The notes: generated from the letters alone by a model not told the origin. A stretch of 64,000 nucleotides of DNA from Candidatus Woesearchaeota archaeon (GCA_964576755.1 CAZNUV010000004.1:740-64739), one strand, 5' to 3'; positions 29,264-56,161 are shown, counted from the stretch's first letter. Translations and numbers: made by a program.

Positions 29264-29335
29264 GCCTCAATAGTATAGTGGTTAGTACATGGCCCTGTCG
29301 CGGCCAAGATCCGGGTTCAATCCCCGGTTGGGGCG
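29264..29335 (+). tRNA. tRNA-Asp(GTC)
   Basis: Acceptor GCCTCAA/TTGGGGC, D arm GTAT-AGTGGTTA-GTAC, anticodon stem TGGCC/GGCCA with loop CTGTCGC, T arm CCGGG-TTCAATC-CCCGG, discriminator G. Confidence 0.9.
29325..29335 (+). repeat. att core copy A (tRNA-Asp 3' end, attL)
   Basis: CGGTTGGGGCG, identical to the copies at 56125, 61074 and 62402. Confidence 0.75.
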
Positions 29336-29346
29336 TTCCTAAAACA

Positions 29347-29369
29347 GTCGGCATTTGATGGGTGCTGGG
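29347..29369 (+). repeat. Arm site, left end of the element
   Basis: GTCGGCATTTGATGGGTGCTGGG. Its reverse complement matches 56087-56109 at 20/23 positions. Confidence 0.7.
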
Positions 29370-29424
29370 CAAATATACAGCATTTATACAATGTCCTTTT
29401 TATTTGCATATTCTTCTAAAATAA

Positions 29425-30603
29425 ATGAAAGTAGATCCATATAACCATAAAGAAAGATATCTTTTATGGAAAGAATCTGTAAAAAATGGTATTCCAGAGA
29501 TATCTAAAGAAAATTCTGACATCCTTTTAGACTATATTTTTGACATGGAGCATGGTCTAAACATTTCAAACAAAAACATAAAGGGTTCTAGAAGTTATAC
29601 TCGATTAAATAGCTTAAAACAAAGAATGATATTTATGTGCAAAAAGTTTGAAGGCATTTATGGAACAAAAGATATCACAAAAATTAAAGAAAGGGAGTTG
29701 CACACCTTTTTCACTGATATGAAAAATGGTGTTGTTAAAAGAGTTGATGGGAGAATATATCAGAATCCTGCGGATTTTGTCAGAATACTTAAAGCATTTT
29801 GGCATTGGTATCAAAAAGTTAATCGTAAAAAAGGAATTGAAATTTATGATATAACTCAAGACCTTGATACAAGTGTACAAAAGCCGGAATGGGTCTACTT
29901 AACCGAAGAACAAATATGGAAATTGTGTGAATCTGTTAATTTTAAGTATCGAGCCCTTATCACGTTTCTTTTCGATACGGGAATAAGAGCTCCAAGTGAA
30001 CTAATCAATATTAAGGTTTCCGATCTACATAATAATTGTAGAGAGCTTACTGTTAGGGATGAGGTAAGTAAGACTTTCGGTAGGAGAATAAAACTAATGC
30101 TTTCTTCAAAAATCATAAAAGAATACATCAAAGTAAATGACTTACAAGAAGATGATTATTTATTTCCTATCAAATATAGCACTGTCAATGATTATTTAAA
30201 AAAATACTGCAAAAAATTATTTGGTGACACAAAAAGTCCTGCAGGTCAAAAATATTCAGAATTTACTATGTATGATTTTAGGCACTGCTCTTGCTGTTAT
30301 TGGTTACCGAGATATAAATCTGAATCAGCATTAAAATATAGATTCGGATGGAAAAGATCAGACAAAATTCATTATTATTCGGGTATGCTAGGTATGAAAG
30401 ACACAATAAATGAAGATGACATGTTAGTCGACTTAACAAAAACTGAAATAGAAAAGAAGTTGGTTAAAAGTGAAAATGAAAAAGAAATCTTGCAGGATAG
30501 AGTAGAGATGTTAGAAAAACAGATGAATGTGATTATGCCTGAAGTTGATGAGATGAAGAATATAATTAAAGAGTTTCAGTTGCTGAAGATTGTTAGGGTA
30601 TAA
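29425..30603 (+). CDS. Tyrosine recombinase / integrase
   Basis: ..FLFDTGIRAPSELINIKVSDL.. (box I Arg), ..MYDFRHCSCCYW.. (His/Arg box) and ..SDKIHYYSGM.. (candidate catalytic Tyr). It is intact and adjacent to attL. Confidence 0.8.
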   Translation: MKVDPYNHKERYLLWKESVKNGIPEISKENSDILLDYIFDMEHGLNISNKNIKGSRSYTRLNSLKQRMIFMCKKFEGIYGTKDITKIKERELHTFFTDMKNGVVKRVDGRIYQNPADFVRILKAFWHWYQKVNRKKGIEIYDITQDLDTSVQKPEWVYLTEEQIWKLCESVNFKYRALITFLFDTGIRAPSELINIKVSDLHNNCRELTVRDEVSKTFGRRIKLMLSSKIIKEYIKVNDLQEDDYLFPIKYSTVNDYLKKYCKKLFGDTKSPAGQKYSEFTMYDFRHCSCCYWLPRYKSESALKYRFGWKRSDKIHYYSGMLGMKDTINEDDMLVDLTKTEIEKKLVKSENEKEILQDRVEMLEKQMNVIMPEVDEMKNIIKEFQLLKIVRV

Positions 30604-30660
30604 AATTTATGAAATATTAAGGGAAGAAGTTAATGTGATTGGAATAAATCTAATAAACTC

Positions 30661-30830
30661 CATTATTATTCTGAATTTTTAAGTAGGGAGAATACGATTA
30701 GCGAAGAAGATATGTTAATGAATTTAACTAAAACTCAAATTGAGAAGCAATTAGTAAAATCGGAAAATGAGAAGGATATTTTGAAAGAAAGGGTTGAGGT
30801 GCTGGAGAAGTAGATGAAAGTTATTGCTTA
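30661..30830 (+). pseudogene. Remnant of a second integrase 3' end
   Basis: Translates to EEDMLMNLTKTQIEKQLVKSENEKDILKERVEVLEK*, versus NEDDMLVDLTKTEIEKKLVKSENEKEILQDRVEMLEKQ in the intact gene (nt 30370-30540). There is no upstream ORF. Confidence 0.75.
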
Positions 30831-30925
30831 AATGATTAAATGAGGATTATGTAAGAGAAATAGCTAGATATTTCATCAAATTCTAAAATAGGGAAATTTA
30901 AAAATACTGTATTATTAGTTATCTT

Positions 30926-31759
30926 ATGATTAAAATTCCAACTTTTCTTAAATGGATTGGAGGAAAGAGGAGACTTATTTCTCAAATAGATCCGCATCTG
31001 CCAGATAAAATTGAATCATATTATGATCCCTTTTTAGGAGCAGGTTCAATGTTTTTTTATATAAAACAGAAATATCCTCTAAAAAAATGTGTTATCTCAG
31101 ATATAAATAGGGATTTAATTGATGTTTATAAATCGGTAAGGGATAATCCTAAACAATTAATGAAATTTCTTAAATTCTATGTGAAAAACAATTCAGAAAG
31201 TTTTTATTATAAAATCAGAAAAAAGTTCAATGAACATGAGATTCATGGATTAAATAGAAGTGCTGCATTCATATATATGAATAAAACTTGTTTTAATGGG
31301 GTTTTTAGAGTAAATTCTAAGGGAGAGTTTAATGTTCCTTATGGAAAAAGAAAAAATCCTGAGATTTTTAATAAGGAGACTATTTTATTTGCGAGTAAAT
31401 TGCTTCAAGGAGTGGATATTCGATGTCAAGATTATGAAAAAATAATCTCTGAAATAAAAGATAAAGATTTTCTATATTTAGATCCTTGTTACGACCCATT
31501 AAAAAGAACGAGTTTTGCAAATTATACTGAGAAAAGATTTTGTGATAAAGATAGTGAAAGATTAAGGATATTTATCTCTAAGGTAAGGAATTTTGGAGCA
31601 AGAATTTTATTAAGCAATAATTTTGTTGACTCAATAAGGAAAAGATACCCTTTAGATCAGGGCTATGATTTAAAAATAGTTTATTGTCCAAGATCAATAA
31701 ATTCAAATGCTACGGGTAGAGGGAAAATTAAAGAATATTTAATTAAGGCAGGATATTAA
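30926..31759 (+). CDS. Dam-family (D12 class, alpha) N6-adenine DNA methyltransferase
   Basis: LKWIGGKRRL, DPFLGAGS (FxGxG), and LYLDPCYDP in place of DPPY. Confidence 0.8.
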   Translation: MIKIPTFLKWIGGKRRLISQIDPHLPDKIESYYDPFLGAGSMFFYIKQKYPLKKCVISDINRDLIDVYKSVRDNPKQLMKFLKFYVKNNSESFYYKIRKKFNEHEIHGLNRSAAFIYMNKTCFNGVFRVNSKGEFNVPYGKRKNPEIFNKETILFASKLLQGVDIRCQDYEKIISEIKDKDFLYLDPCYDPLKRTSFANYTEKRFCDKDSERLRIFISKVRNFGARILLSNNFVDSIRKRYPLDQGYDLKIVYCPRSINSNATGRGKIKEYLIKAGY

Positions 31760-31760
31760 G

Positions 31761-33374
31761 ATGGAAATTAAGACATATGAGGAATCTTTAAAAAAAATAA
31801 AAGCCAAGGGCTTGAATAATGAAGAAAAGAAAGTAAACAAGTTATTTCTAGATTTTAATTTTAATTTTATCGATTGTAATTCTAAATTTTATAGGGCTGG
31901 GGAAGAAATAGGTGAAATTGATGGGATTTTTACCTTGGGTGATGATTATTTATTTTTAATTGAAGTTGGAAAAGAGAAGGGTTCAGACAGATCTGAAAAA
32001 ATAACAAAATTTTTATCTAAATGGTCTTCTGAAGAAAATCTTAATGAAATCTTAAAAAATAAGAAAATTAAAAAAGAGATTAAAATTATTAGAATCTATG
32101 TAGATTTTTATGAAAATGGCACTAAAGTTGGATTGAATAAGGCATCCCTTCAACACCTCAATGAGGAAACAAATAAAATAATTTATGGGGAAGATATTGA
32201 ATATTATATAAAATCATATGCATTAATAGGATCTTTTGCAAAAAATGAATTATTATTTGATTTAGATTTAAAACCCCTCAAAAAAAATTATGAAGATAAG
32301 GATGCTATTAGAATCCCTTTAGGTAATAAGATGGCATTTTTATTTCATGCAACGGCAGAGGAATTATTGAATACCTCTTATATCTATCGAAAGAAGGAGT
32401 CCTCTCTAGATGGGTATCAACGAATTCTAAAACCCAATAGGGTTAACAAGATAAGAGAAGCTATACAAAAAGAAAAAATCTTAGCATTTCCTAATTCAAT
32501 TATTTTAAGTAGCCGTGAAAAATTATGTGCAGGTTTTGACAAAAGTCCTGGAATTTGTAAGATAAAAATGCCTAATAGTTATCTTTCATTCAAGGTGGTT
32601 GATGGTCAACATAGGTTAATGGGTTTTTCAAAATTAGATAAAAATTTAAGGGAAGATCATCATCTCCCTGTTGTTGCTTTTGAGGATTTAAATAAAACTG
32701 ATGAGCTTCAAACATTCATAACAATTAATACTGAACAAAAGAAAATAGATCCTAATCTTTTACTTATTCTTAAGGCAGATATTGATTTAGAAGAAAAAGA
32801 TAAATTTTTTATAGAAAAACAAGCTGTATTAATTATTAAAAAATTAAATAATGATAAAAACTTTTTTTTAAAAAATAGAATTTTTTTAGGATATAATGAG
32901 ATTAAAGGTGCGAAGATCACATTAACAACACTAGTGTCTGCAATTAAGAAAAATAATCTTATCTGTGGAAAGTATCATTTACTACAAACAAATATTTCAG
33001 AAATTGATAAACCTTATCGGGAAATTAAAAAAATTTTAATTTCTGCGAGAAAAAGTTTAAGAAGTTTTTGTAATTTGAAAAAAACGAAAAAAGCTGATAG
33101 TTTCTTTCTTTCAAATAATGGATTAAGAGTTTTATTCAGGTTAATACAATTTTTCCTAAGAAATAAAAATAAGAAATATGTAAGCTCAGAAGAGAATTAC
33201 GATAGTTTTTTTAAAGATGTCTCAGAAGTTTTATCTGGAGAAGATGTTGAAGAGTTAATGAAAGACTTTGGAGAGGGAGGATTTTCTAATGCGACTTCAA
33301 AAATAATAAAGAAACTTAAGGCATCTAAAAAAGAAAAATACAAAAAATTTAAGGAAGATTTAAGAAAGTTATAG
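31761..33374 (+). CDS. DGQHR-domain (DndB/ParB-like) protein with N-terminal nuclease-like region
   Basis: ..LDGYQRIL..NSIILS.. and ..FKVVDGQHRLMGF..FITINTEQKKI... The N-terminal ..GEIDGIF..LFLIEVGKEK.. resembles a PD-(D/E)xK core. The ATG is 1 nt after the Dam stop. Confidence 0.7.
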   Translation: MEIKTYEESLKKIKAKGLNNEEKKVNKLFLDFNFNFIDCNSKFYRAGEEIGEIDGIFTLGDDYLFLIEVGKEKGSDRSEKITKFLSKWSSEENLNEILKNKKIKKEIKIIRIYVDFYENGTKVGLNKASLQHLNEETNKIIYGEDIEYYIKSYALIGSFAKNELLFDLDLKPLKKNYEDKDAIRIPLGNKMAFLFHATAEELLNTSYIYRKKESSLDGYQRILKPNRVNKIREAIQKEKILAFPNSIILSSREKLCAGFDKSPGICKIKMPNSYLSFKVVDGQHRLMGFSKLDKNLREDHHLPVVAFEDLNKTDELQTFITINTEQKKIDPNLLLILKADIDLEEKDKFFIEKQAVLIIKKLNNDKNFFLKNRIFLGYNEIKGAKITLTTLVSAIKKNNLICGKYHLLQTNISEIDKPYREIKKILISARKSLRSFCNLKKTKKADSFFLSNNGLRVLFRLIQFFLRNKNKKYVSSEENYDSFFKDVSEVLSGEDVEELMKDFGEGGFSNATSKIIKKLKASKKEKYKKFKEDLRKL

Positions 33375-33380
33375 AATACC

Positions 33381-33995
33381 TCAAATCCACTTCCCATCCA
33401 ACTCAATCCCAATCCAACCTCTATCTAACTCCTCACAAGCCTTACAAGTCGAACCACTACCTGCAAAAGGATCCAAAACAAGATCCCCTTTCTTAGAACT
33501 ATGAAGGATCATTTTCTTTAGTAAATCAATTGGCTTTTCATGGGGATGATTAGTTTTATTATGATTAATATGGCTGCAAGTTTGAACATCAGAGAAGTTT
33601 GTTAATTTATATTTTGGCCTACCTTTCTCAAGAACCAATATCAATTCGTACTGATGCCTAAAAGCCCACCCAAGTCCAAAATTATGTTTTTTCCAAACTA
33701 CCAAATGCCTAATCTTAAACTTAGTATATCTTAAGATGAATTCTGTCAAAAATGGATAATGTTTCCAGTTAGTAAACAAATAAAGCGAACTATTCAATTT
33801 CAAAACCCGATACATTTCAACCAAAGCCGAACAATTAATTAAAGGATTCTCATTGTTTTTAATTACTTTGTTGTTCCAACCATAAGCCACATTATCTCCA
33901 TAGGGAGGATCTGTAACAATCAAATCGACACATCGGCACGGCATTTTCTGCATAACCTTAATACAATCCCCATGAATTATTTTATTCAATTCCAT
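33381..33995 (-). CDS. Beta-class N4/N6 DNA methyltransferase
   Basis: DLIVTDPPYG near the N-terminus and DPFAGSGST near the C-terminus. 204 aa. Confidence 0.8.
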   Translation of the reverse strand: MELNKIIHGDCIKVMQKMPCRCVDLIVTDPPYGDNVAYGWNNKVIKNNENPLINCSALVEMYRVLKLNSSLYLFTNWKHYPFLTEFILRYTKFKIRHLVVWKKHNFGLGWAFRHQYELILVLEKGRPKYKLTNFSDVQTCSHINHNKTNHPHEKPIDLLKKMILHSSKKGDLVLDPFAGSGSTCKACEELDRGWIGIELDGKWI

Positions 33996-34182
33996 TTTTC
34001 TTCAAAAGCTTATTTAATTTTTCCTCGATAATAATTAATTGGGGCTTTAAATAAATCCTAGATAAGCAATAATTGTTGAGACTAGTATTTTCTTCTCTCG
34101 CCAATCGTTTTAATTTCTCAATCTGAGGAGTTTCTAATACAAGATGTATTTGTGCATTCTTTTTCATGTCTTCTCCTGACAA
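33982..34182 (-). CDS. Ribbon-helix-helix (CopG/Arc-like) protein
   Basis: ..IHLVLETPQIEKLKRLAREENTSLNNYCLSRI.. has a beta-alpha-alpha pattern. It overlaps the MTase start by 14 nt. The true start may be the internal ATG (MKKNAQ..). Confidence 0.5.
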   Translation of the reverse strand: MSGEDMKKNAQIHLVLETPQIEKLKRLAREENTSLNNYCLSRIYLKPQLIIIEEKLNKLLKKNGIE

Positions 34183-34381
34183 TATCTCTTAAGAGTTCAT
34201 TTAATTCCTTCAGCTTAGAGATGATCTCCTCCCCAATATCTTCTGCAATTTTTTCTTTCATAAAAAAACTATTCAAAGAGTATTTATAAAAAATCAGAGA
34301 AAAAATAGCTATTTTTTAAACTATCTTTTAGCCCTTAATTTTTCTCCGAGTTAATTTATAATAAACTAATCAACAACAATC

Positions 34382-34845: not shown

Positions 34846-34850
34846 GTAAA

Positions 34851-35231
34851 ATGCAAATGAAAACTTTATTTATTTTTTTAATGGCAGTTGCTTTGACATT
34901 GCCCTTAGCAACTGCCTTCAATTGCACTGCTCTTGATGGCGAGAATAAGAAAGTTTGTAACTATATTGAGGGTCAACCATGGTCTCAATCTGAAAAAGAT
35001 TCTGTAATTCAAGACATGATTGATAATGGTGGAACATTAGATGGAGATTTTAATTCAATCCTTAATAAACCAGTAGAAGATACATTTCAATTAAATAAAC
35101 TTGAAGAAGTAGATTTAAAGATTAGTGATGAAAATAAAACATTTTTAATAGATTTTTCTTCAATTTCAATCTTTGGATATGTTGTTTATGCTTTTCTTAG
35201 AAAATACTATCTTCTATTAAGATTTTTATGA
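34851..35231 (+). CDS. Exported protein with C-terminal anchor
   Basis: Signal peptide (..LPLATAF|N) and a C-terminal TM. Confidence 0.45.
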   Translation: MQMKTLFIFLMAVALTLPLATAFNCTALDGENKKVCNYIEGQPWSQSEKDSVIQDMIDNGGTLDGDFNSILNKPVEDTFQLNKLEEVDLKISDENKTFLIDFSSISIFGYVVYAFLRKYYLLLRFL

Positions 35232-36055
35232 CCTCTTGCGGGATTACTAATCTTGGTTCTTGTTTAGTTGAAAAATTATTTGAGTTTATTATTTATCTTT
35301 TAAACTTACCAATTAAACCAATTTTAATTCTTATTAATAATCTGATGATTGAGCCAGTAAATATCGATATATTTGCTAGTATCTGGGCTGTAATAATCTA
35401 CATGCTTTCATTATTTTATGGAATACTTCTTTTATTTATTGGATTTAGGTTTCTAGTTTCCGGATATTCTCCAGAACAAAGGGAAAAAGCCAAGAAAAGT
35501 CTTGCAAATATTCTAATTATGATGGTTCTAATTCAAATAAGTTTTTTTCTTTATTCATTAGTTTTAGAGATAATGGCTTCAATGACTGCAGTAGTCTATA
35601 ATTCAATCCCTTCAGATTTTTTCTTAATAACTTTGGATAGTTTTAGTAATATGGGTCTAGAATTGACTTTATTACTTCCTTATGTTGCAATATTAGTAAT
35701 AACGTTGATTTTTCTTACATTAAGATATATTTGTGTAGGTGTTGGAGTTGTTTTCTTTGCTATTGGGATTTTCTTTTACTTTATTGAGCCATTGGAAGCT
35801 TATGGAAAATTAATCTTAAATTATCTGGGGGTTTTGATAGCATTGCCTTTCTTTTATTCAATTATCCTTTTAGCTTCTTCAAAGTTTTTAGAAATCGGAA
35901 TTTTTTCAAATTTGAAAATCTTAGTAATGATTGGGGGCTTTGGCCTTGTTAATTTATTTACATTATTCCTAGCTTTATTTGTAATTTTTAAAGCAGCAAA
36001 TGCAATTGCAACACCTGTAAGTCAGGTAGTAAGCATTGTGGGTGCAGGAGCTTAA
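35228..36055 (+). CDS. VirB6/TrbL-like polytopic membrane protein
   Basis: 275 aa with about 6-7 TM segments. It overlaps the upstream stop (ATGA) and is followed after 1 nt by the VirB4-like gene. Confidence 0.5.
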   Translation: MTSCGITNLGSCLVEKLFEFIIYLLNLPIKPILILINNLMIEPVNIDIFASIWAVIIYMLSLFYGILLLFIGFRFLVSGYSPEQREKAKKSLANILIMMVLIQISFFLYSLVLEIMASMTAVVYNSIPSDFFLITLDSFSNMGLELTLLLPYVAILVITLIFLTLRYICVGVGVVFFAIGIFFYFIEPLEAYGKLILNYLGVLIALPFFYSIILLASSKFLEIGIFSNLKILVMIGGFGLVNLFTLFLALFVIFKAANAIATPVSQVVSIVGAGA

Positions 36056-36056
36056 A

Positions 36057-39000
36057 ATGTATGAGATTCCTCAACAATTAGAGTATAAGGAAAAAATAGT
36101 CTTTGGATTAACATTTCCACAATTAGCTTATGCTCTTGTATTTTTCCCTTTTGTTTTCTCATTTTTGTTTAAGATTAATGCAGATATTTATGTGAGAGTT
36201 TTTCTAGCTTCAATTCCGGCATTACTAGCTTCTGGATTTATGTTTTTTGATTTAAGTGGAAAGATAAAAAGAGGATATATTTGGTTTAAACTTCGAGAAA
36301 TAAGAACTGAGAAACAAAAAAAATTAGACCTAGAAAAAAGGCAAGGAGAACTAGAAAAAAGAAGGGAAGATAAATTAGAGAATAAACAAAAACCCAAGGG
36401 GGAGAAGCCTGAAAAGAAAATTGAAAAAGAAAAGCCCGAAAGGAATGATGTTAAGAATTTTTTTAAAATAGAAAAAATAGAAAAAAATATTATTCATTAT
36501 GACAACAAAAAAATTGCTGTTCTGAGAGTTGACTCATTAAACTTTGGAATAAAGCCCTTGAAGGAGCAGGAGACAATTATGTTATCTTTCCAGAAATTCT
36601 TAAATTCAATTGATTTTCCAATTCAAATTTTAATGACTACAGAAACATTAGACTTAGAGGATTATCTTGGATGTCTTGCTAATAAGATAATTGAAGAAAG
36701 GAATCGGGAGATTTTTGATTCATATAAATCCCATATGAAAAATTTAATTGAGAAGAATAGTGCGATGAATAGGAATTTTTATATTGTTATTCCAGAAGTT
36801 AGTGATCTTGAAATTCAAATGAGATTATGTGAAGAAAGACTTCATAGCTTAAATCTTAAGACTTATCGACTAAAGAAATCAGAATTAGAGAAGATGTTTT
36901 CTAAAATTTTTGGATCAAAAAAGATGTTACCCGAATCTATAAAAAATTCTCCAGATTTTGTTGAGGTCGATGGCAAATTCCACAAAATAATTTATGCTCA
37001 TGGATACCCAAGGTCAGTTGAAAAAGGCTTTTTGGACAGATTAGTTAGTTGCTCAGGGAACTTTGATTTTTCCCTACATATAACTCCCCGTCCAATAGAA
37101 GAAACTTTAATTTTATTAAATAGAGAGTTACAAAAGCAAAGGGCGGATATTTATTCAGCAAAGATAAAGAATCAGTTTAATCCTAGTCTTGAAATAAAAT
37201 ATAAGGACACTAAAGCAGTTCTTACAAACTTACAGAAGGGAAACGAGAAACTTTTCAATATTAGCTTTTATATTAATTGTAGGGCAGATAACTTAAAGGA
37301 ACTTAAGCTTCTAGCTAGGAAAATTGAGTCCGAACTTAATTCCTTGCTTATTATTCCAAGACAGCCAAACTTTAGGATGATTCAAGGATTCAAATCCTGC
37401 TTGCCATTAGCTAAGGATTTTTTAAGGGCGACTAGAAATATTACAACTTCGGCACTGTCGGCATTTTTCCCATTTACATCTTCCTTCTTTAAGTTTGATG
37501 AAACTGGTGTGTGGTTTGGACTAAATAAAAATAATATCCCTATAATTCGAGATATTTTCAAATTATCTAACTCTAATGGGATGTGTTTGGCTAGTTCCGG
37601 GGCGGGGAAAAGTTATATGGCAAAACTTTTCATAACAAGACATTTGCTTAATGGGACAAAAGTTATTGTGATTGATCCTCAAGGCGAATATAAAAACTTA
37701 GTTGAAAAATTTAAGGGTCAAAGAATTAATCTTTCTAGAACTTCCAATACTATGATTAATCCCTTGGATTTAATGGGGCACGATTACGCTGAGAAAAGAC
37801 TTTCTCTGATGGATTTAATGCCTGTTATGTTAGGGCAATTAACCGAGCCTCAGAAGTCATTTATTGATCAGGCTTTGACCGAAGCTTATGAGAGAAAAGA
37901 GATTTATATGAATGATAAGAAGAGTTGGGCTAACGAACCGCCGATTTTAGGCGACGTGTTAAATGTTCTACAGACAATGGAGGAAACGGCTATTAATCTC
38001 GAGAAAACTACCTTACGAAGCCTAATAAACCGACTACGGCTATATGTCGATGGGGTTTTCTCTTTTTTGAATAGGCATACTAATATAGATTTTAAGAATA
38101 ATTTTGTTTGCTTTGATATTGGTAATATGCCAAGACAGGTTAAGCCGACAATTATGTTTTTGGTACTTGATTATGTTTACATGAAGATGAAAAAGGATAT
38201 CAATAGAAAACTTCTAGTTATTGATGAGGCTTGGTCTTTGCTGTCTAGAGCAGAAGAGGCATCCTATATTTTTGAGATTGTGAAGACTTGTCGTAAATTC
38301 AATATGGGACTTTTCTTAATTAATCAAGAAGTTGAAGGTATGCTTAACTCTGAGGCGGGGCGTTCAGCCCTTGCCAATTCTTCTTATACAATCTTACTTA
38401 GACAAAAACCTGCAGTAATTGATGGCATTCAGAAAGTTTTTCATTTGAGTAATGTGGAGAGAATTGCATTGCTAACTGCGGGAGTGGGTGAAGGTATACT
38501 CTTAATGGAAGATGAACATTCTGAATTGAAAATAGTTGCCTCAAAAGAAGAACATAAACAGATCACAACTAATGCGGATGAGCTTCTTGAGGCAGAACCT
38601 GAAGAAGAAGTCAAGGGCAAAAAGGTCAATGTCAAAGTTGATGAAAATGAAAGAGTTCATTTATCTAAGGACTTATCTGAAGGCGACAAAACTTATTTGA
38701 GTAGAAAAAGATTTGGAGAAGTTAAGTATAAAGGAATCGATGGAAAGTTTCACAAATATTTTGTTAAGAAATACAAGAATGAATCACCACAGCATATGAT
38801 TTGGGTTTATGAAATTTCCAATTATTTAAAGAAGTTCACAAATAAGATTGAAACTCCTAGGACTGCTAAGGCAGATATTATTTTTGAGGTTAAGGGTAAA
38901 AAATATGGGATTGAAGTGGAGACTGGGAAATTAATTAAGAAGGATAAATCTAAAATTGAAAATAAAGTTAAGTATCTTAATTCAGATTTTGATAAAAATT

Positions 39001-39339: not shown

Positions 39340-40338
39340 ATGACTAAAGAAAAATTTACGGTTGTAGAATTATTTGCAGGAGCAGGGGGTCTTGCTATCG
39401 GGCTGGAAAAAGCGGGATTAAAAAATGTGTTCTTAAATGAAATAGATAAGGATTGCGTTAATACTTTGAAAAAAAATAGGCCTAAATGGAATATAGTTCA
39501 TGAAGATGTGAGAAAATTAGATTTTAAAGGAATAAAAGCAGATGTTGTAACAGGAGGATTTCCATGTCAAGCGTTTAGTTATGCTGGAAAAAGATTAGGA
39601 TTTGAAGATACTAGGGGGACATTATTCTTTGAATTTGCTAGAGCTATAAAAGAAATACAACCTAAAATATTTATTGGAGAAAATGTAGCTGGATTAGTTT
39701 CTCATGACAAAGGTCAAACATTGAAAACTATGATTAGAATTTTGGAAGAAGACTTAGATCATTATGATATTCAGTATAAAGTATTAAACGCAACAGATTA
39801 TTCTGTTCCTCAAAAGAGAAAGAGGATATTAATTGTTGGTACAAAAAAAGGATTTAAATTTGAATATCCAAAAAAACATGAGAAAGTAGTTGTTCTGAGA
39901 GAAGCTTTGAAAGATGTTCCTAAATCTGTAGGTACACAATATTCAGAAAAAAGAAAAAAGGTTTTAGATTTAGTACCTCCCGGAGGTTGTTGGATAAATC
40001 TTCCAGAAGACATTAAAAAAGAGTTTATGGGGGTTAGTTTCCATAGTGGAGGTGGAAAAAGGGGGATGGCTAGAAGAATCTCTTGGGATGAGCCTTGTTT
40101 AACTTTAACAACTTCCCCTTCACAAAAACAAACTGAACGGTGTCATCCTAAAGAAACTAGGCCTTTTACAGTAAGAGAATATGCCAGAATTCAGACATTT
40201 CCTGATGATTGGGAATTTACTGGGAGCATTTCTTCTCAATATAAACAGATTGGTAATGCGGTGCCTGTAAAATTAGCAGAAGAAGTAGGTAAAGAAATAA
40301 TCAAGACTTTAAAATCATTTAATGAAATGCATAATTAA
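39340..40338 (+). CDS. DNA (cytosine-5) methyltransferase
   Basis: ELFAGAGGL (motif I), GGFPCQAFS (motif IV), ENV (motif VI), QIGNAVP (motif X). TAAGGAGGT precedes the ATG. Confidence 0.92.
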   Translation: MTKEKFTVVELFAGAGGLAIGLEKAGLKNVFLNEIDKDCVNTLKKNRPKWNIVHEDVRKLDFKGIKADVVTGGFPCQAFSYAGKRLGFEDTRGTLFFEFARAIKEIQPKIFIGENVAGLVSHDKGQTLKTMIRILEEDLDHYDIQYKVLNATDYSVPQKRKRILIVGTKKGFKFEYPKKHEKVVVLREALKDVPKSVGTQYSEKRKKVLDLVPPGGCWINLPEDIKKEFMGVSFHSGGGKRGMARRISWDEPCLTLTTSPSQKQTERCHPKETRPFTVREYARIQTFPDDWEFTGSISSQYKQIGNAVPVKLAEEVGKEIIKTLKSFNEMHN

Positions 40339-41020
40339 AGAATTCTAAAAGTTTTGTCATTTCTATTTCATTTATAGAAAATTCAGATTTTCTTAGATCC
40401 TTTATTGCTAAAGCAAGAGCTTTCCAAGTTTTTTCTAGAGCTTTAGGATCTCCAGTAACTAATTCATATACTTTACTTCCCCAAACCTTTCTTATTCTTT
40501 CATCACTTTTTCCGCCCTTTTTCCAAATAATATCTCCAGAATCTCCGTTTTTACTAACTAAAAATGCCCAATAAGCCTTAACTTTGGGATTATTTCTTAC
40601 AGCCATTTCTAATTTATCTCGACATTTATCAGTAGAATCTGAATTCATAGTATTAAATTTATTTTTTAATTCAATAAAAATGCTTTTATCTGATTTCATG
40701 AGATCTACTTTTGAATCATCTCCAACACCTAAATCTACCCACCCATTTACTTTGCCCAACAACTTTTGATGGAATTCCCCTATTCGATTATTGATAGTTT
40801 TGTCATTTTGTCTTATTCTTTCTGAGGAGATCCATTCATCAGTTTGTAATTCTCCGTTTATTATATCAAAAATTAATTTAAAAGGATCAATAGTATTTTT
40901 CTGCAATTTTTTCATATCTATTTCTTCTGAATCTGTAGGATATGCTTCACAAACCCATTTAACACACTTTAAAAAATCTTCATCAGACACAAAGTCCACA
41001 TATTTATTTTTGTTAGCCAT
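40319..41020 (-). CDS. Type II restriction endonuclease candidate (Eco47II/Sau96I-like by recollection)
   Basis: Convergent with the m5C MTase, with a 20-nt overlap. ..KVDLMKSDKSIFIELKNKFNTMNS.. looks like a D..E-x-K core. The family name is from memory of similar sequences and was not searched. Confidence 0.55.
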   Translation of the reverse strand: MANKNKYVDFVSDEDFLKCVKWVCEAYPTDSEEIDMKKLQKNTIDPFKLIFDIINGELQTDEWISSERIRQNDKTINNRIGEFHQKLLGKVNGWVDLGVGDDSKVDLMKSDKSIFIELKNKFNTMNSDSTDKCRDKLEMAVRNNPKVKAYWAFLVSKNGDSGDIIWKKGGKSDERIRKVWGSKVYELVTGDPKALEKTWKALALAIKDLRKSEFSINEIEMTKLLEFFNYAFH

Positions 41021-41284: not shown

Positions 41285-41677
41285 TTATTTTAATTTTTTC
41301 CTCAAATCATCTAAATCTTCATAAACAATAATCTTATCTGCACAAGCCTCTAAAAAGTTGGCTTCTGTGCCTTTTTGATGGATAATTATAATTTTCTTCT
41401 TTAATGCTTTTGCATATCCTACCTCAAAATAAACTCCATTTGCTTTTTCAGAAGCCTCAACAAGAAGAGCATCACATTTTTCTATTGTCTTGTACGCTTT
41501 TTTTACAACCTCTTTGATTGGCATTTTAATCTTACCCCAATCTTGTGTATCTCTAAAAAATATAAATGTTTTATAGCCTAAAGTTTCTTCCACAACATTA
41601 CTTAATTCTTCAAGCTTTTGTTTTAACAAAACAGGATCAGAATCCTTAAATTTATAAGCTATGTATATTTTTTTCAT
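41285..41677 (-). CDS. Nucleoside 2-deoxyribosyltransferase-like (NDT/Rcl fold) protein
   Basis: 130 aa. MKKIYIAYKF.. Rossmann-like start and ..GVYFEVGYAKALKKKIIII.., which matches the catalytic Glu / G-x-A / GK-P-h block of the family. Confidence 0.6.
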   Translation of the reverse strand: MKKIYIAYKFKDSDPVLLKQKLEELSNVVEETLGYKTFIFFRDTQDWGKIKMPIKEVVKKAYKTIEKCDALLVEASEKANGVYFEVGYAKALKKKIIIIHQKGTEANFLEACADKIIVYEDLDDLRKKLK

Positions 41678-41678
41678 T

Positions 41679-43043
41679 TTAAGCTACTTTTATTTTTCTC
41701 CTACTTCCACTAGGATAATATAGATTATAAGCTTTTCTTAGCATTTCATTTAATTGTTTTGGACTAGCCTCACAAAAAGACAAATCATTACTTATATGAT
41801 ATTTATCAAAATTCTGATTGGGAATATCTAAGGGGACTTGATCTTGCAAATGATTATATGCTTGAAGCTGTTTATCTCCATATTTTTTTCTTAAGGAATT
41901 ATACATCTTAGTTCCTGGATAAGCCTTAACTAAAACAAAACAAGCAGTATCAGTATTAAGCTCTCTTGCTAAGTTTAGTGTTTGATTCATTTCACTTAAT
42001 GTTTCAGTTGGAAATCCAAACATATAATATGCCTTTGTTCTTATCCCAACTTCCTGACAATATTGAACAGCTTTTCTTGCCTGTTCAGGAGTTGTTCCTT
42101 TTTTAATTGAATCTAAAATTCTTTGGCTTCCTGATTCAATTCCAAAAACCAATTGATAACAACCTGCTTGATTAATTTTCTGTAAAAATTCTTTTCCAAA
42201 TCTTGCAGTAATATCTGTTCTAGCTAATGCTCTCCACTTAATCCCTAAATCTCTTTTCTGCAATTCTTCAGCTAAGTGCAAGACCCTATCTTGATTATAA
42301 ATAAAATCATTATCTAAGAAATGGACAGAATTAATGCCATATTCCTGTTTTAACATTTCCATTTCATTTACAATATTTTCTATACTTCTAGTCCTAATTT
42401 TTCTGCCAGAGGTTAGTGGAGCAGAACAAAAACTACAGATATAAGGACATCCCCTTGAACCCATAATAACAGATTTTAAATTTCCATTTTCTTGATAAGG
42501 ATCTTTTACAAAAAAATATCTATTAATAAAAGGTAAAGAATCTAAATCTTCAATTTTCTCTCTTTCAGGATTATGTATAATTTTATTTCCAGAAAAGTAT
42601 GAAATTCCTTTAACCCCTAGAGGGTTAAAATTATTATTAAGAAGTTCTGTTAAAGTTAATTCCCCTTCGCCTCGGACCAAGATATCAGTCTCAGGAATTA
42701 ATTTTAAAGATTGCTCAGGATTAATTGTTGCATGAGTTCCGCCAGTAATAATTTTAGTTTTGGGACTTTTCTGCTTAATCTCTTGAACAATTTGTTTGCT
42801 TAAATTAATGGTGGGAGTTATAAGATTTATTCCAACCAAATCAGGGTTTTCAGATAATGCACTATCGACAGATTGTTCTAAGGATAATCCTTTTGCTTCA
42901 GAATCAATAAGTCTAACATTATGTCCTAAATTTTGGGCAGTTGTAGCTAAGTAACCTAACCCAATTGGGGGTGTGGTGTAGTATTCTTTCTTTGCTTTCT
43001 TTCCGTAATCTTGTAATGGTGAATTAATAAAAATTATGTCCAT
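41679..43043 (-). CDS. B12-binding-domain radical SAM enzyme (class B)
   Basis: N-terminal B12-binding-like Rossmann region (..PPIGLGYLAT..LVGINL..IITGGTHAT..) followed by GSRGCPYICSFCS (CxxxCxxC). Confidence 0.8.
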   Translation of the reverse strand: MDIIFINSPLQDYGKKAKKEYYTTPPIGLGYLATTAQNLGHNVRLIDSEAKGLSLEQSVDSALSENPDLVGINLITPTINLSKQIVQEIKQKSPKTKIITGGTHATINPEQSLKLIPETDILVRGEGELTLTELLNNNFNPLGVKGISYFSGNKIIHNPEREKIEDLDSLPFINRYFFVKDPYQENGNLKSVIMGSRGCPYICSFCSAPLTSGRKIRTRSIENIVNEMEMLKQEYGINSVHFLDNDFIYNQDRVLHLAEELQKRDLGIKWRALARTDITARFGKEFLQKINQAGCYQLVFGIESGSQRILDSIKKGTTPEQARKAVQYCQEVGIRTKAYYMFGFPTETLSEMNQTLNLARELNTDTACFVLVKAYPGTKMYNSLRKKYGDKQLQAYNHLQDQVPLDIPNQNFDKYHISNDLSFCEASPKQLNEMLRKAYNLYYPSGSRRKIKVA

Positions 43044-43059
43044 AATAACTCCAGTTACC

Positions 43060-44163
43060 TCAATTCATCTCCTTTAAATTAATAACAATACTATCAACAG
43101 TCCGCTTAGGTTTTCTATTGCCGATTATTAATCCTTGATTTTTTAGATAATTAAAATAAGTAGAAATTGTACTAAGATTAATCCCTGTTTTTTTAGAAAT
43201 ATCTAAACTGCTATTTGTTCCATTACATAATTTTAGAATTTCTAATTTAATATTGTTAAGGGGCTTAATCTGTCTTTCAAATTCTTTTTTATTTGATATA
43301 AATAAACTTCTTGTTCTTTCTTTTGAATTTTGCTTTTGAATTATCTTCTGGATCTTAGAAAAATAATCATAAAGTCCTTCACTTACCTGCCCAATAAATT
43401 TCTTTTTTGTTTTACTTAGTTTTAATGATCTTAAAACAGGACTAAAAACTTCGATTAAATCGCTAATCTCCTTATCTGAGATTTTCTTACCCGCATAATG
43501 GGACTTAACTATGTCCCTGATTTTCTCTTTAGACATTTCAATAGATGGAATCTCTTCCTTATCTGAGATTATAACTGGAACTTTTCTAACAAAGATTGGT
43601 TTAGGTGATTCATATTTAAGATAAGTTGTAGAAAGATAAGAAATTATTTCTTTCTGAAATATTCTAAATCTTTCAGAAGTTAGATAATAATTCGGAGCTG
43701 TTGGACATAATTCTGGAAATAACTCTGGCAAATTCATTGCAATAAGATAATCAGAGATAATGTAATTTATCTTAGACAGGCTAATCTGATTAAAAGGGAT
43801 ATATTCGATTTCAAAACCTTTTTTCAAATTTTCAATTTTAAATCTAGATAAAATTCTCTGTAATGTTGAAGAAAATTCTGAATTTTTTAATAGCCGGTCC
43901 ATTGCATCAGACAAATATAGGATCTTATAGTTCATATTAAGCGAGGTCATTAATTTTTCAAGAACCGCCACATTTTCCTGTAATTTCTGAATCTTGTTTT
44001 TTGTATAATCTAAACCTTTCCCAAAAACTGGATGTTCAAAAACAAAATTATCCCAAACACAAAGATAAATCTTTTTTGGGTTTTGTTTTTTCAAATAATA
44101 AATATGATTTATGTTAGTATATGAATTTGTAACAGGGCTAATATTTGTATAAATTATCTTCAT
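43060..44163 (-). CDS. Unknown N-terminal domain fused to a C-terminal winged-helix HTH
   Basis: C-terminus ..ILKLCNGTNSSLDISKKTGINLSTISTYFNYLKNQGLI.. is ArsR/MarR-like. The N-terminal 280 aa are unassigned and include ..PSIEMSKEK... Confidence 0.5.
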   Translation of the reverse strand: MKIIYTNISPVTNSYTNINHIYYLKKQNPKKIYLCVWDNFVFEHPVFGKGLDYTKNKIQKLQENVAVLEKLMTSLNMNYKILYLSDAMDRLLKNSEFSSTLQRILSRFKIENLKKGFEIEYIPFNQISLSKINYIISDYLIAMNLPELFPELCPTAPNYYLTSERFRIFQKEIISYLSTTYLKYESPKPIFVRKVPVIISDKEEIPSIEMSKEKIRDIVKSHYAGKKISDKEISDLIEVFSPVLRSLKLSKTKKKFIGQVSEGLYDYFSKIQKIIQKQNSKERTRSLFISNKKEFERQIKPLNNIKLEILKLCNGTNSSLDISKKTGINLSTISTYFNYLKNQGLIIGNRKPKRTVDSIVINLKEMN

Positions 44164-44804
44164 AAAACTCCTATGACTTCTTTAAGAGATTTAACTAAAA
44201 TTCCTTTTATTCCAACATTTTCTGCCCCAATAACTTCATAGTCATCATGAGAAACAAAGATACTCTTTTCTGCAGTGATGTTTGCTCTTCTTAATGCTTC
44301 CCGATAAATTTTGGGATGTGGTTTTCTATGTCCAACTTGATAAGAGATAATAATGGGATCAAACATGCTAAGCATTTTCTCTTGGTTTAGTTCTGTAATT
44401 AAAGAATCATGGGGGAGGTTGGAAATTATTCCTAGATTGTATTCTTCAGATAATTTGTTTAAAATTCTCTTAGAATGAGGAAACGGAGTACTATTGTGAT
44501 CATTAAATTTATAGATATCTTCTAAGTGTTGAATATCTGCTTTAATCCCTAAATTTGAAACCATTAAGCCCATTATTTGATTCATTGTCCACTCAGAATT
44601 ATCCTGATTTCTAACCTCTAAATAGGTTTCAATTGCCTTATTGTGTGCGGTTTCTAGGGCTTGTGTGCTTACTTTTCCATTGTTTAATAAGTTAATATAA
44701 GTTAATGCTAATTTGTGGGCTCTTTGAAGGGTTTCCCTATTAAAATCGTAATTGAATATCAGTCCGCCATAATCTAGGAATAAATTCCTTTTTTCTTTAG
44801 TCAT
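44160..44804 (-). CDS. HAD-superfamily (subfamily IA-like) hydrolase
   Basis: Motif I LFLDYGGLIF (D-x-G rather than D-x-D), motif II IISNL, motif III GHRKPHPKIY, motif IV VSHDDYEVIGAENVG. Confidence 0.7.
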   Translation of the reverse strand: MTKEKRNLFLDYGGLIFNYDFNRETLQRAHKLALTYINLLNNGKVSTQALETAHNKAIETYLEVRNQDNSEWTMNQIMGLMVSNLGIKADIQHLEDIYKFNDHNSTPFPHSKRILNKLSEEYNLGIISNLPHDSLITELNQEKMLSMFDPIIISYQVGHRKPHPKIYREALRRANITAEKSIFVSHDDYEVIGAENVGIKGILVKSLKEVIGVL

Positions 44805-44972: not shown

Positions 44973-45251
44973 ATGAAACAAACACCTATAAAAAATAGTC
45001 CTCTTCTTCCAAGAAGAATAATCAATGTAAAAGGAAAAGTCCATTATAGTGAGAGTAATCAGGCTTGGAACACTATTAAACTAAAAACAGAATTTCTTAA
45101 TGAATTTCAACAATTAAAAGAAAAAAGATCCAAGTTTTCTTATGAAATGTTATTTGGAAGAACTGAAGAAGAAATGGTTGAAGCTATAAAGAAAATTATA
45201 AAAGATAAAAATTTGATGCCGATTTTGATGTTTTTGTATAAGGATGGGTAA
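44973..45251 (+). CDS. Hypothetical protein
   Basis: 92-aa ORF just upstream of the next gene. Confidence 0.4.
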   Translation: MKQTPIKNSPLLPRRIINVKGKVHYSESNQAWNTIKLKTEFLNEFQQLKEKRSKFSYEMLFGRTEEEMVEAIKKIIKDKNLMPILMFLYKDG

Positions 45252-46001: not shown

Positions 46002-46007
46002 AAATTA

Positions 46008-50111: not shown

Positions 50112-50112
50112 C

Positions 50113-52632: not shown

Positions 52633-52746
52633 TTTTACCTCTTTTTTAATATGAAGAGCTACATTAAAAAACTTTCTATTATTAAGAGTGTTAACAATTA
52701 ATGAATTATTCTATAAGTTTTTAAACTTTCTTTTATATAGATAATT

Positions 52747-53265
52747 ATGGTTAAGATCAGACAATTTTTACCAGGATTTCTTTTGTTGATTTTTGGAATC
52801 TTAATTTTCTTAATAGGATATTCTAGGGTGGGAACGGTTTTAATTTTATTAAGTTTTCTCATATTATTTTCAAAAATTTATGAATTAAACAAAGGAATTA
52901 AAATTTATTCTAAAAGATGGGTTGACCTATATTTTATAATAATTTTTGTGGGATTCATTCTTAGCATTCTTATTCAGCATAAATTATTTAATAGGCAAAT
53001 TTCTTTTTTAGAGATAATTCTAGGATCAATTCTTTTATTAGCGCTCTACTTGGTATCTCGATTTGCTTCCTTAAATTTAGAAAAAAAGAAACTAAAAATA
53101 ACCGCCTCTTTTTTAGGGGGATATTGTCTTATTGTTATTGGTTTAGTGTTTACTATCTTATTTTTTGTTTTTAAAAATCCTTATCTAATTTTTAATTTTA
53201 TTAGTATCTCTTTTATTATAGTGGGGGCCATTCTTATTTTTCTTAACTACCTTAGAAAGAAATAA
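52747..53265 (+). CDS. Polytopic membrane protein
   Basis: 172 aa with 5-6 TM segments. Confidence 0.5.
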   Translation: MVKIRQFLPGFLLLIFGILIFLIGYSRVGTVLILLSFLILFSKIYELNKGIKIYSKRWVDLYFIIIFVGFILSILIQHKLFNRQISFLEIILGSILLLALYLVSRFASLNLEKKKLKITASFLGGYCLIVIGLVFTILFFVFKNPYLIFNFISISFIIVGAILIFLNYLRKK

Positions 53266-53361
53266 CGTAGTTAACATAATCGGGAATACAAAACACTTAA
53301 AAAGCTCTAAATAGTACTAATTTTAAGCCCTAATGAGGAAAAGAGTTCTGATAAATTTAAG

Positions 53362-55785: not shown

Positions 55786-55926
55786 ATTATTATATCTACT
55801 AACTAAATTTAGTTAAGGCCATTCATTACAGTCCATCTCTTCCCAATCAATATTGTTTTATGTTTCATTTTAGTTTATATAATTAACACTATAAGAGAAT
55901 ATAAAAAATTAACCTTTCCAATCTAT

Positions 55927-55984
55927 CCACTCAATCTCGACAATCCTTAAAAAGTCAAACCATCGCACACACATCGATGGGAAA
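55927..55984 (+). repeat. 58-bp repeat, copy 1 (TATA-like box plus start of a 30-codon mini-ORF)
   Basis: CCACTCAATCTCGACAATCCTTAAAAAGTCAAACCATCGCACACACATCGATGGGAAA. About 45/58 identical to 59343-59400. Confidence 0.65.
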
Positions 55985-56086
55985 TCCTGAATGGGTAACT
56001 AAACTTTTAGAATTAAAAAAGCAGGCTGAAATAGATAAGAAAGCGGAGAAATCTAATAATGATAACTAAACTAAAAGAAAAAGGAT

Positions 56087-56109
56087 CCCAGCACCCATGA
56101 AAACCCGAC
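56087..56109 (+). repeat. Arm site, right end of the element (inverted copy of 29347-29369)
   Basis: CCCAGCACCCATGAAAACCCGAC versus the reverse complement CCCAGCACCCATCAAATGCCGAC. Confidence 0.7.
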
Positions 56110-56124
56110 ACAGTCCAGTAGGTT

Positions 56125-56161
56125 CGGTTGGGGCGTACGGACAAAGTGTCCCATTTCATGG
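56125..56161 (+). repeat. att core copy B plus downstream arm
   Basis: CGGTTGGGGCG followed by TACGGACAAAGTGTCCCATTTCATGG. Flanked by CCATGAAA (56095-56102) and TTTCATGG (56154-56161). Confidence 0.75.

Follow-up and report, generated by a model that had tools for sequence, protein, structure and literature searches.

Most integrative and conjugative elements (ICEs) of Thaumarchaeota and the conjugative plasmids of Sulfolobus carry the ATPase VirB4 paired with VirD4/TraG, and tandem re-use of attachment (att) sites is known for archaeal integrative elements (PMC6563490). Relaxases are absent from all known archaeal conjugative plasmids (PMC9905601, PMC6563490). The archaeal section of a December 2025 review of type IV secretion systems (T4SSs) covers Sulfolobus plasmids and Thermococcus pT33-3 only, and in the full-text literature outside subscription journals we found no T4SS-bearing integrative element described in Pacearchaeota, Woesearchaeota, Nanoarchaeota or DPANN. 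We analyzed a 64,000-nt stretch of DNA (the window) from Candidatus Woesearchaeota archaeon (GCA_964576755.1, CAZNUV010000004.1:740-64739) and studied element A, located at 29336-56135, which is integrated at a tRNA-Asp(GTC) gene and carries an integrase and a T4SS module. We interpret it as an ICE-like integrative element hosted by Candidatus Pacearchaeota and representing a new DPANN family, and assign this reading a probability of roughly 0.6. Open reading frames (ORFs) were taken from a mechanical ORF list, and feature coordinates are collected in Table 1.

The first-pass annotation, made from the sequence alone, had proposed a 26.8-kb element integrated in tRNA-Asp whose attP can be rebuilt from its two ends. 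The coordinates given there all hold. The tRNA gene is intact, its 3′ end being restored by the core copy of the element, and is followed as stated there by an intact tyrosine recombinase, whose ORF begins 89 nt past the tRNA. The last 11 nt of the tRNA, CGGTTGGGGCG, recur at the right end as had been claimed; the window contains not two but four exact copies and one with an inserted G, against an expectation of 0.02 in a shuffled window with one mismatch allowed. Both att cores are exact. The proposed inverted arms were also recovered: the left arm lies 11 nt after the attL core, separated from it by TTCCTAAAACA, the right arm lies 15 nt before the attR core, and the two are reverse complements at 20/23 positions. 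A 23-mer with at most three mismatches is expected zero times in shuffled sequences, and when the 60 nt on the inner side of each core were aligned locally, the same arms came out with a score reached by 0 of 500 shuffles. Since the attL and attR junctions are both present in independent assemblies from other samples (L002-L005 and L012-L017, respectively), they are not assembly artefacts. The arrangement of tRNA, integrase, cores and arms is thus real and beyond chance expectation, and element A is site-specifically integrated in the tRNA-Asp 3′ end, with a reconstructable attP of inverted arms around the core.

Contigs of independent assemblies tend to break near these sites: L001 ends at ~29277, L002 and L004 start at ~29294, and L015 and L017 end at ~56205. 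The breaks, inside the tRNA or ~70 nt right of attR, could reflect assembly-graph branching caused by population variants or by repeated att sequences. A 182-aa ORF spanning attR (56097-56645) is probably no real gene.

Similar patterns were found at other tRNA-Asp genes. Scanning metagenomes with the last 25 nt of tRNA-Asp gave 73 contigs. In ~25 of them an integrase of the family (22-88% identity) lies 48-180 nt behind the tRNA, an arrangement also seen in four GTDB Pacearchaeota genomes; of the other contigs, some hold unrelated integrases (L022, L036 and L087), some remnants only, and some are empty. The 11-mer also follows tRNA-Asp in exact direct copies in L030 (three copies), L037, L047, L051, L053, L062, L066, L076 and L085. 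Two of these loci contain complete units: in L030 the copies bound a 7.1-kb integrase-less element with inverted arms matching at 23/25 positions, and in L053 a 9.2-kb element with a divergent integrase and arms matching at 17/20; in each case 0 of 500 shuffles reached the score. Arms placed beside the cores in these two loci mean that the attP layout recurs in independent elements, which supports the layout put forward in the first-pass annotation. Relatives without the insertion, suggested there as a comparison, also exist: the tRNA-Asp site is empty in L064, with UvrA directly downstream, and in L055, with a thermosome gene.

Across related left ends, the spacing between the arm motif GATGGGTG and the core is constant. 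Most sites that are occupied or hold remnants show, behind the core, ~30 loosely conserved nucleotides with (C/G)ATGGG(T/C)G at their end; this stretch is missing at truly empty sites and is therefore element-derived, and it is the best candidate for an integrase-binding site. The motif TTCATGGGTG matches five times in the window against three expected, which is not significant by itself, and it is informative only because its position after the core is fixed across loci. Farther downstream, the putative int promoter ATATACAGCATTTATACAATG is identical or near-identical in L006, L007, L010, L030, L033 and L097.

Two other kinds of tRNA-Asp locus were seen in the scan. L022 and L036 carry an integrase of 390-410 aa at +62 nt followed by ORFs that look, by eye and without profile check, primase- and P-loop-ATPase-like, and L087 carries a 369-aa integrase at +60 nt with an ORF resembling a family-B DNA polymerase on the same basis. 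Mini-arrays consist of head-to-tail units of 74-112 nt, each ending in the 11-18 nt of the tRNA 3′ end with almost nothing between (L047 88-248, L051 2365-2599, L062 2817-3051 and L037/L085).

The integrase matches PF00589 (Phage_integrase) over residues 160-318 with 43.2 bits against a cut-off of 27.1 (E = 4.9e-11). Thirty homologs all keep R188, K216, R286-H287, W309 and Y317/318; the RxxR positions of XerA (4A8E) align with R188 and R286, and Tyr283 takes the place of the first His of HxxR. The possibility that the protein is an archaeal XerA was rejected: NF040815 gives 47.2 bits against a cut-off of 220, PDB XerA matches with E = 0.12, and the protein is ~100 aa longer and adjoins a tRNA. 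The element contains the whole, uninterrupted gene, at a distance of 89 nt from attL; this is pNOB8-like behaviour, in contrast to the SSV type, where attP lies within int and integration splits the gene.

Directly behind the integrase stop lies a pseudogene whose product matches residues 309-365 of family integrases (E ~1e-26) and is 70-74% identical to a subgroup of ~384-aa integrases, compared with 65% to the resident integrase. The pseudogene is what remains of another integrase of this family, distinct from the resident one, and a scar of integration-module replacement. As right arm, core, left arm and int would be contiguous in the circle, the swap of one cassette would leave such a scar.

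We compared related GTDB genomes within 10 kb around the match, a span shorter than their elements. Four GTDB Pacearchaeota species (L006, L007, L009 and L010) share the order U32 peptidase, small ORF, tRNA-Asp(GTC), integrase, variable genes, N6/N4 DNA methyltransferase (MTase), pilin, 126-aa protein, 275-aa protein and VirB4, with identities of 65-88% for the integrase and 76-87% for the MTase. The same core occurs in L070 and L078, while L097 matches at the left end (U32, tRNA-Asp and integrase) and its contig stops just after the integrase. At least six Pacearchaeota contigs or genomes besides the window have the integrase-MTase-T4SS core next to tRNA-Asp, and others have it at non-tRNA sites. 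The non-tRNA loci L018, L020 and L021, from the same genomes, contain this core with an integrase of a sister subgroup; L018 and L010 are on one contig, 59 kb apart and inverted, and some genomes have two copies. The T4SS operon is the sole module kept family-wide besides int and the MTase, the latter being 76-89% identical and syntenic across all related elements. Found in the variable slots elsewhere are type I restriction-modification (R-M) genes, a C5 MTase together with an ATPase of the histidine-kinase type, or Dnd genes, the last seen behind the same core on a 27-kb JGI contig; the family thus carries defence cargo.

The integrase has 2339 homologs, the named ones being from Pacearchaeota/Nanoarchaeota, and VirB4 has 679 matches in Pacearchaeota/Nanoarchaeota, in some genomes two. 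The named homologs of both proteins, which come from Candidatus Pacearchaeota, from Nanoarchaeota or from metagenome-assembled genomes classed no further than "archaeon," and the same-order GTDB loci indicate that the host is, by sequence affiliation, a Pacearchaeota (DPANN) archaeon. With thousands of integrase and hundreds of VirB4 homologs, the elements apparently form a large, undescribed family. One integrase and one VirB4 homolog (P0026 and P0144) are labelled "Methanococcoides sp. SA1" at NCBI and come from a 569-kb contig; the other named matches being all Pacearchaeota/Nanoarchaeota, this record looks like a mislabelled or mixed assembly.

The T4SS module was recognized most clearly by its pilin and its ATPase. 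The pilin scores 53.5 bits with Pfam T4SS_pilin and 39.3 bits with TrbC, each above the cut-off, and matches the NCBIfam Mbov_0395 pilin-like family. We infer that the 275-aa protein is VirB6-like from its ~6 transmembrane segments, its position in the operon and its weakly pilin-like N-terminus (NCBIfam, 1e-4); a pilin-like N-terminus is reported for CedA/VirB6 (PMC9905601). A PDB sequence search gave no useful match for either protein. VirB4, whose true start is probably the ATG at 36057, matches Pfam P-loop_TraG (97 bits), DUF87 and PrgI, and aligns to PDB 4AG5 over residues 488-844 (2.2e-30). Its NCBIfam matches are conju_CD1110 (312.8 bits) and the Mycoplasma-ICE family VirB4_plasma (294 bits), both below the curated cut-offs. 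In PLSDB we found 2269 matching plasmid records, none of which cover 80% of the VirB4 query; the matches listed stop by about residue 846, ahead of the C-terminal nuclease-like domain, and the closest VirB4s from plasmids, at 24-33% identity, are those of the CD1110 family, known from conjugative plasmids of Firmicutes.

The C-terminal domain of VirB4, ~130 aa long, is conserved in homologs and shows the pattern E...H...KPD...ExE(TG) in an alignment of 33 sequences, in which E71, H75, D102 and E115-x-E117 (alignment numbering) are invariant and K100/P101 nearly so. An AlphaFold2 model of the domain (pLDDT 90.1) was compared with the PDB using Foldseek, and the top matches are mainly PD-(D/E)xK proteins, namely Cdn1, Can2, NucS/EndoMS, YaeQ, several restriction endonucleases and nickases as well as Hjc. 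Statistical support is weak, the best E being 1.4e-3 and no TM score exceeding 0.4. With the conserved motif taken into account, the domain is probably nuclease-like.

The composition of the module bears on what it may do. One alternative holds that the T4SS is a host-interaction or DNA-uptake machine for the episymbiotic DPANN lifestyle and that the island is merely the vehicle by which it spreads or was once delivered; like Ced/Ted and the Patescibacteria T4SS, the set of pilin, VirB6-like protein, VirB3/4 and adhesins could then take up DNA or nucleotides or serve an exchange of material with the host cell. VirB2, VirB6 and VirB4 without coupling protein or relaxase are the minimal trio of Ced/Ted (PMC9905601), VirB4 is very common in Pacearchaeota/Nanoarchaeota, as the counts above show, and the MPF-FATA-derived T4SSs of Patescibacteria, which correspond to DPANN among bacteria, have pilins, mostly lack a relaxase and are essential for epibiotic growth. 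Furthermore, VirB4 domains occur in giant surface proteins of nanohaloarchaea and are proposed to act on the host cell, which makes a host-interaction role possible for the module here, and giant secreted proteins are encoded on the same island. We nevertheless consider this explanation rather unlikely on the whole, as the module sits in an att-bounded element with a conserved and apparently active integrase, is shuffled between elements and sites, and is missing from many of the relatives' tRNA-Asp loci. Similarity to the Ced ATPase is, moreover, marginal (CedD, 35 bits against a cut-off of 600), and conjugative VirB4 families match best. Self-transfer and host interaction are, in any case, mutually compatible functions.

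The host markers U32 and S10 group L006, L007, L010 and L097 together (S10 90-93%) and place the window host at a distance from them (S10 72-76%, U32 56-62%), yet the integrases of L006 and L097 share 88-90% identity with that of the window. Modules are also shuffled: with the non-tRNA element L020, element A shares 82% identity in VirB4 but only 66% in the integrase, and the VirB4s of tRNA-Asp elements are 63-66% identical to its own. Integrase/host mismatch, module shuffling and integrase scar together indicate a modular family that is mobile now or was so recently.

The island could instead be a fossil, integrated once by the recombinase and now immobile and vertically inherited, with repeats and arms as scars in decay and the T4SS retained for another use or being lost. 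All assemblies of the species contain integrated junctions only, the arms have three mismatches, the neighbouring segments B-D are decayed, armless remnants and an integrase pseudogene fragment is present, all of which would fit such a history. Set against these are core ORFs of full length relative to their homologs, intact catalytic residues in the integrase, two exact cores and, besides module shuffling, integrases that are near-identical although their hosts are distant, and we consider a fossil improbable.

The gene content was also compared with that of viruses and plasmids. The first-pass annotation had left open whether the element is an integrative plasmid, an ICE or a provirus, having recognized no replication, relaxase or capsid gene; none was found by the Pfam, NCBIfam and PHROG scans either, and the T4SS module makes the gene content ICE-like rather than viral. 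About a dozen ORFs lack an assigned function, and archaeal virus proteins are often unrecognizable, which leaves some room for a provirus, or for a non-conjugative integrative plasmid, with incidental VirB-like genes. However, ten unassigned or giant ORFs gave no PHROG matches and no capsid, portal, terminase or packaging ATPase, and IMG/VR contained no relatives of the integrase in single-sequence and 30-sequence-alignment scans, nor relatives by DNA-pattern scan. No Rep or primase gene speaks for a plasmid, and the T4SS operon is the only module kept throughout the family besides int and the MTase; we judge this possibility extremely remote. Two IMG/VR matches to the 21-nt promoter-like motif were dismissed as chance, having no integrase or core nearby.

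Several observations weigh against an ICE-like, mobile element. No VirD4/TraG/TcpA coupling protein was found, there being no second P-loop translocase in the larger element ORFs by Pfam, NCBIfam and PADLOC, and the Pfam and NCBIfam scans gave no MOB/relaxase family match in the element, in which no oriT was recognized; a lone NikA-like match is weak (E = 0.006) and lies outside it, in a segment B protein (57608-58297). Without coupling protein and relaxase, element A lacks two textbook features of bacterial ICEs. The archaeal signature of Sulfolobus plasmids, pT33-3 and most Thaumarchaeota ICEs likewise differs, VirB4 alone being found here without VirD4. No Rep or primase gene was recognized by profile scans among the element ORFs, and homologs of VirB1 and VirB8 were not found in the element. 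The nuclease label depends on weak Foldseek E-values plus the E...KPD...ExE motif. GC content is ~30% throughout the window and, like GC skew, marks no element boundary, and 3 of the 23 arm positions are mismatched. The T4SS genes track the host markers among L006, L007 and L010, which fits long vertical residence, and long vertical residence between transfers is likely.

Finally, the circular junction and the empty site of the window species, which the first-pass annotation had proposed to look for, were not found in public assembly contigs. Exact-protein look-ups with the U32 peptidase, the integrase and a TrmB-like gene across public assemblies yielded contigs from ~8 samples, all with the integrated form and none with an attP or attB junction; several of them end in or near the tRNA or the att site. 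A degenerate attL/attR/attP/attB pattern had zero matches in the JGI metagenome collection and is uninformative, since it also missed the known attL. The features of bacterial ICEs that element A does have are an integration module with flanking att direct repeats and a VirB4-family ATPase.

For an ICE-like element of this anatomy, the following mechanism can be proposed. The 392-aa integrase would insert a circle into the 3′ end of tRNA-Asp(GTC) through an 11-12-bp core identical to the tRNA end, which would regenerate the tRNA and leave the core as a direct repeat at both ends. The attP of the circle would consist of the right arm (CACCCATG...), 15 nt, the core, 11 nt and the left arm (...GATGGGTG), followed by the int promoter and gene; the arms would be roughly symmetric around the 5′ part of the core and are likely integrase-binding sites. 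Integrase-mediated recombination of attL with attR would excise the circle, and the orphan N6/N4 MTase plausibly protects the element DNA. Pilus and giant secreted proteins, the latter as adhesins, would mediate cell contact, and pilin, VirB6-like protein and VirB3-VirB4 would form a minimal monoderm T4SS of the MPF-FATA-like kind exporting DNA, for which the nuclease-like domain fused to VirB4 might produce the transfer substrate in place of a relaxase. The transferred element would re-integrate at tRNA-Asp. Repeated use of this site has added decayed, integrase-less segments to the window locus, an accretion in the manner of cis-mobilizable elements (CIMEs).

In its full form, this would make the element a self-spreading kit, the mobile counterpart of Ced/Ted and the Patescibacteria T4SS, in which the VirB4-fused PD-(D/E)xK domain cuts DNA like a relaxase and pilus, VirB6-like pore, VirB3-VirB4 motor and giant adhesins move DNA from symbiont to symbiont or between symbiont and host, with neither coupling protein nor relaxase. 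We offer this extension tentatively and consider it less likely than not. If true, the host-contact and DNA-exchange capacity of DPANN archaea would itself be horizontally transferable.

The island does not end with element A. While the 26.8-kb integrated element of the first-pass annotation stands, it is not a single unit, as three further att copies extend the island to ~62412-62428. Including the tRNA end, five core copies lie in direct orientation, at 29325, 56125, ~60468 (one inserted G), 61074 and 62402, and the locus is a tandem array of tRNA-Asp, element A, segments B, C and D, and host DNA. Positions 61074-61100 and 62402-62428 are identical over 27 nt, and behind the copies at 60468 and 61074 follows a related stretch of ~30 nt, T(A/C)C.GGAC.TTTGTG.CTTTCATGGGTGGAC. 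Beyond 62428, the independent 43-kb contig L012 continues with DedA/VTT, zinc-finger, GTPase, methyltransferase and NUDIX genes and is chromosome-like. Local alignment compared with shuffles detected no inverted arms in segments B and D, which we therefore treat as decayed remnants rather than intact satellites.

ICE-CIME accretion arrays at tRNA or att sites are familiar from Streptococcus (ICESt1/ICESt3), where a complete element is followed by short att-flanked segments. The layout of the window resembles these arrays, including segments without recombination and transfer genes. It differs in integrase family and domain of life, and the downstream segments here lack inverted arms, which makes mobilization in trans doubtful.

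Segments B and D contain three nucleotidyltransferase genes, each with a small ORF (58374-59328, 59424-60307 and 61186-62287); these pairs resemble toxin-antitoxin pairs accumulating in remnants, and the HEPN label of the partner is without profile support. A 45-nt repeat (...TCGACAATCCTTA(A/T)AAA...CATCGCACACA) at 55927-55971 and 59343-59387, 82% identical and present again at 60378-60400, resembles the sequence that immediately precedes the second-type integrase genes of L018 (9957-10000) and L020 (9955-10000). It may represent a promoter or 5′-leader consensus of these elements or of the host.

The remaining cargo agrees with the initial description of three MTases, an R-M pair, VirB-like genes and giant surface proteins, the D12, N6_N4 and C5 MTases and an Eco47II-type restriction endonuclease having been found. 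Slot 1 is occupied by different genes in related elements. In the four-gene operon, the B12-radical SAM gene is PADLOC candidate PDC-M51A (1.9e-23), and the operon may serve in defence or in modifying nucleotides or DNA. In L030, the 7-kb integrase-less element has as its main cargo a more distant B12-radical SAM gene (28% identity). The 92-aa protein gave no family match in the Pfam and NCBIfam scans; its homologs in L030 (79%), L039, L065, L071 and L079 lie within a few hundred nucleotides of an integrase or tRNA-Asp, and a role as small regulator or excision/directionality factor is speculative. Two ORFs without assignment come next in element A. The giant secreted proteins (1130, 839 and 807 aa) show weak Big_7 (Ig-like), CARDB and GEVED matches. 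Elsewhere in the window, ARAGORN places a tRNA-Ser(AGA) at 20502-20581 (-), and Rfam at the gathering threshold lists tRNA-Asp only.

Table 1. Features of the tRNA-Asp island, in window coordinates.
Feature	Coordinates	Strand	Evidence or remark
tRNA-Asp(GTC), integration target	29264-29335	+	ARAGORN; Rfam RF00005, 63.8 bits
attL core CGGTTGGGGCG, final 11 nt of tRNA-Asp	29325-29335	+	sequence; copy count
Left inverted arm GTCGGCATTTGATGGGTGCTGGG, containing family motif GATGGGTG; putative integrase-binding site	29347-29369	+	arm alignment
ATATACAGCATTTATACAATG, putative int promoter	29373-29393	+	conserved upstream of int in related elements
Tyrosine-recombinase integrase, 392 aa, intact, ATG start	29425-30603	+	Pfam PF00589
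Integrase pseudogene remnant, last ~59 codons, in frame, ending ...HYYSEFLSRENTISEEDMLMNLTKTQIEKQLVKSENEKDILKERVEVLEK and stop	30634-30810	+	
Variable slot 1: D12 (Dam-type) DNA MTase and DGQHR/DndB-DpdB-like protein	30926-33374	+	Pfam; NCBIfam DGQHR; PADLOC MTase_II, DpdB
Conserved orphan N6/N4 DNA MTase, element core	33381-33995	-	Pfam N6_N4_Mtase
VirB2/TrbC-type pilin, leader and two hydrophobic helices	34504-34845	+	Pfam, NCBIfam, transmembrane profile
126-aa secreted/anchored protein of T4SS operon	34851-35231	+	synteny; signal and C-terminal transmembrane segment
275-aa polytopic protein, ~6 transmembrane segments, VirB6/CedA-like channel candidate	35228-36055	+	transmembrane profile
VirB3-like transmembrane segment, VirB4 ATPase and C-terminal PD-(D/E)xK-like domain, 1024 aa	36036-39110	+	Pfam, PDB, NCBIfam
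Variable slot 2, type II R-M pair: C5 MTase (+), Eco47II-family restriction endonuclease (-)	39340-41020	+/-	Pfam; PADLOC MTase_II, REase_II
Four-gene operon: nucleoside-deoxyribosyltransferase/TIR-like, B12-radical SAM, winged helix-turn-helix, HAD hydrolase	41285-44804	-	Pfam
92-aa protein, candidate regulator or directionality factor	44973-45251	+	recurs near integrases/tRNA-Asp
Secreted/surface block: proteins of 221, 1130, 839, 172 (six transmembrane segments) and 807 aa	46008-55785		N-terminal signal/anchor segments
Right inverted arm CCCAGCACCCATGAAAACCCGAC	56087-56109	-	20/23 complementary to left arm
attR core CGGTTGGGGCG, doubling as left att of next segment	56125-56135	+	sequence; junction in L012-L017
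Segment B, 4.3-kb integrase-less remnant: TrmB-like regulator, nucleotidyltransferase/HEPN-type pairs	56136-60467		no terminal arms
Degenerate att copy CGGTTGGGGGCG, then GGAC..TTTG..TTCATGGGTG arm motif	60468-60512	+	
Segment C, 0.6-kb remnant: GNAT acetyltransferase	60480-61073		Pfam Acetyltransf_1 on L012 copy
att copy: exact 11-mer and 16 nt also in last copy	61074-61100	+	
Segment D, 1.3-kb remnant: nucleotidyltransferase gene and adjacent 168-aa ORF, interpreted as toxin-antitoxin pair	61085-62401		
Last att copy, right edge of whole island; host-like genes beyond	62402-62428	+	

The DPANN archaea, symbionts with reduced genomes, are abundant and uncultured. ICE-like islands at tRNA genes are well known, and element A is a cleanly delimited example of its family, with a defined att site, a modular structure and slots for defence genes. 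An integrase of this family next to tRNA-Asp can serve as a marker for mobile DNA in metagenome-assembled genomes of DPANN archaea, where binning often loses such islands. The nuclease-fused VirB4 is a concrete candidate for relaxase-independent archaeal DNA transfer, and the system as a whole is an archaeal parallel to the T4SS of Patescibacteria.

Among bacterial systems, the closest in sequence are the MPF-FATA systems of Firmicutes and Mollicutes, which provide the best matches for VirB4 (conju_CD1110 and VirB4_plasma) and for the pilin (Mbov_0395-like; Mycoplasma ICE Mbov_0395/0397) and share the monoderm envelope. Element A differs from them in its archaeal host, in scores below the family cut-offs and in VirD4, VirB1 and VirB8 not being found. 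The Patescibacteria T4SS derives from the MPF-FATA clade and most of its loci are without relaxase (PMC12102498); like the host of element A, Patescibacteria are ultra-small and episymbiotic, and in element A, too, a relaxase was not found.

Thaumarchaeota ICEs (Krupovic et al. 2019, PMC6563490) and plasmids of the Sulfolobus pNOB8 group insert by a tyrosine recombinase, often into tRNA genes, and like element A carry VirB4, VirB6, VirB3 and pilin-type genes and no recognizable relaxase. In contrast to them, element A resides in a DPANN host, and its VirB4 forms one protein with a VirB3-like segment and, at the C-terminus, a nuclease-like domain. Standard VirB2/TrbC profiles recognized the pilin here, while no pilin is recognizable in Sulfolobus plasmids (PMC9905601). 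Ced and Ted of Crenarchaeota (Beltran et al. 2023, PMC9905601) consist of the same trio, of which pilin and VirB4 are firm in element A and the VirB6-like protein is a probable counterpart; sequence similarity to Ced is negligible (CedD, as given above). While Ced and Ted are chromosomal and "domesticated," the genes of element A lie inside an att-bounded, integrase-bearing and shuffled element.

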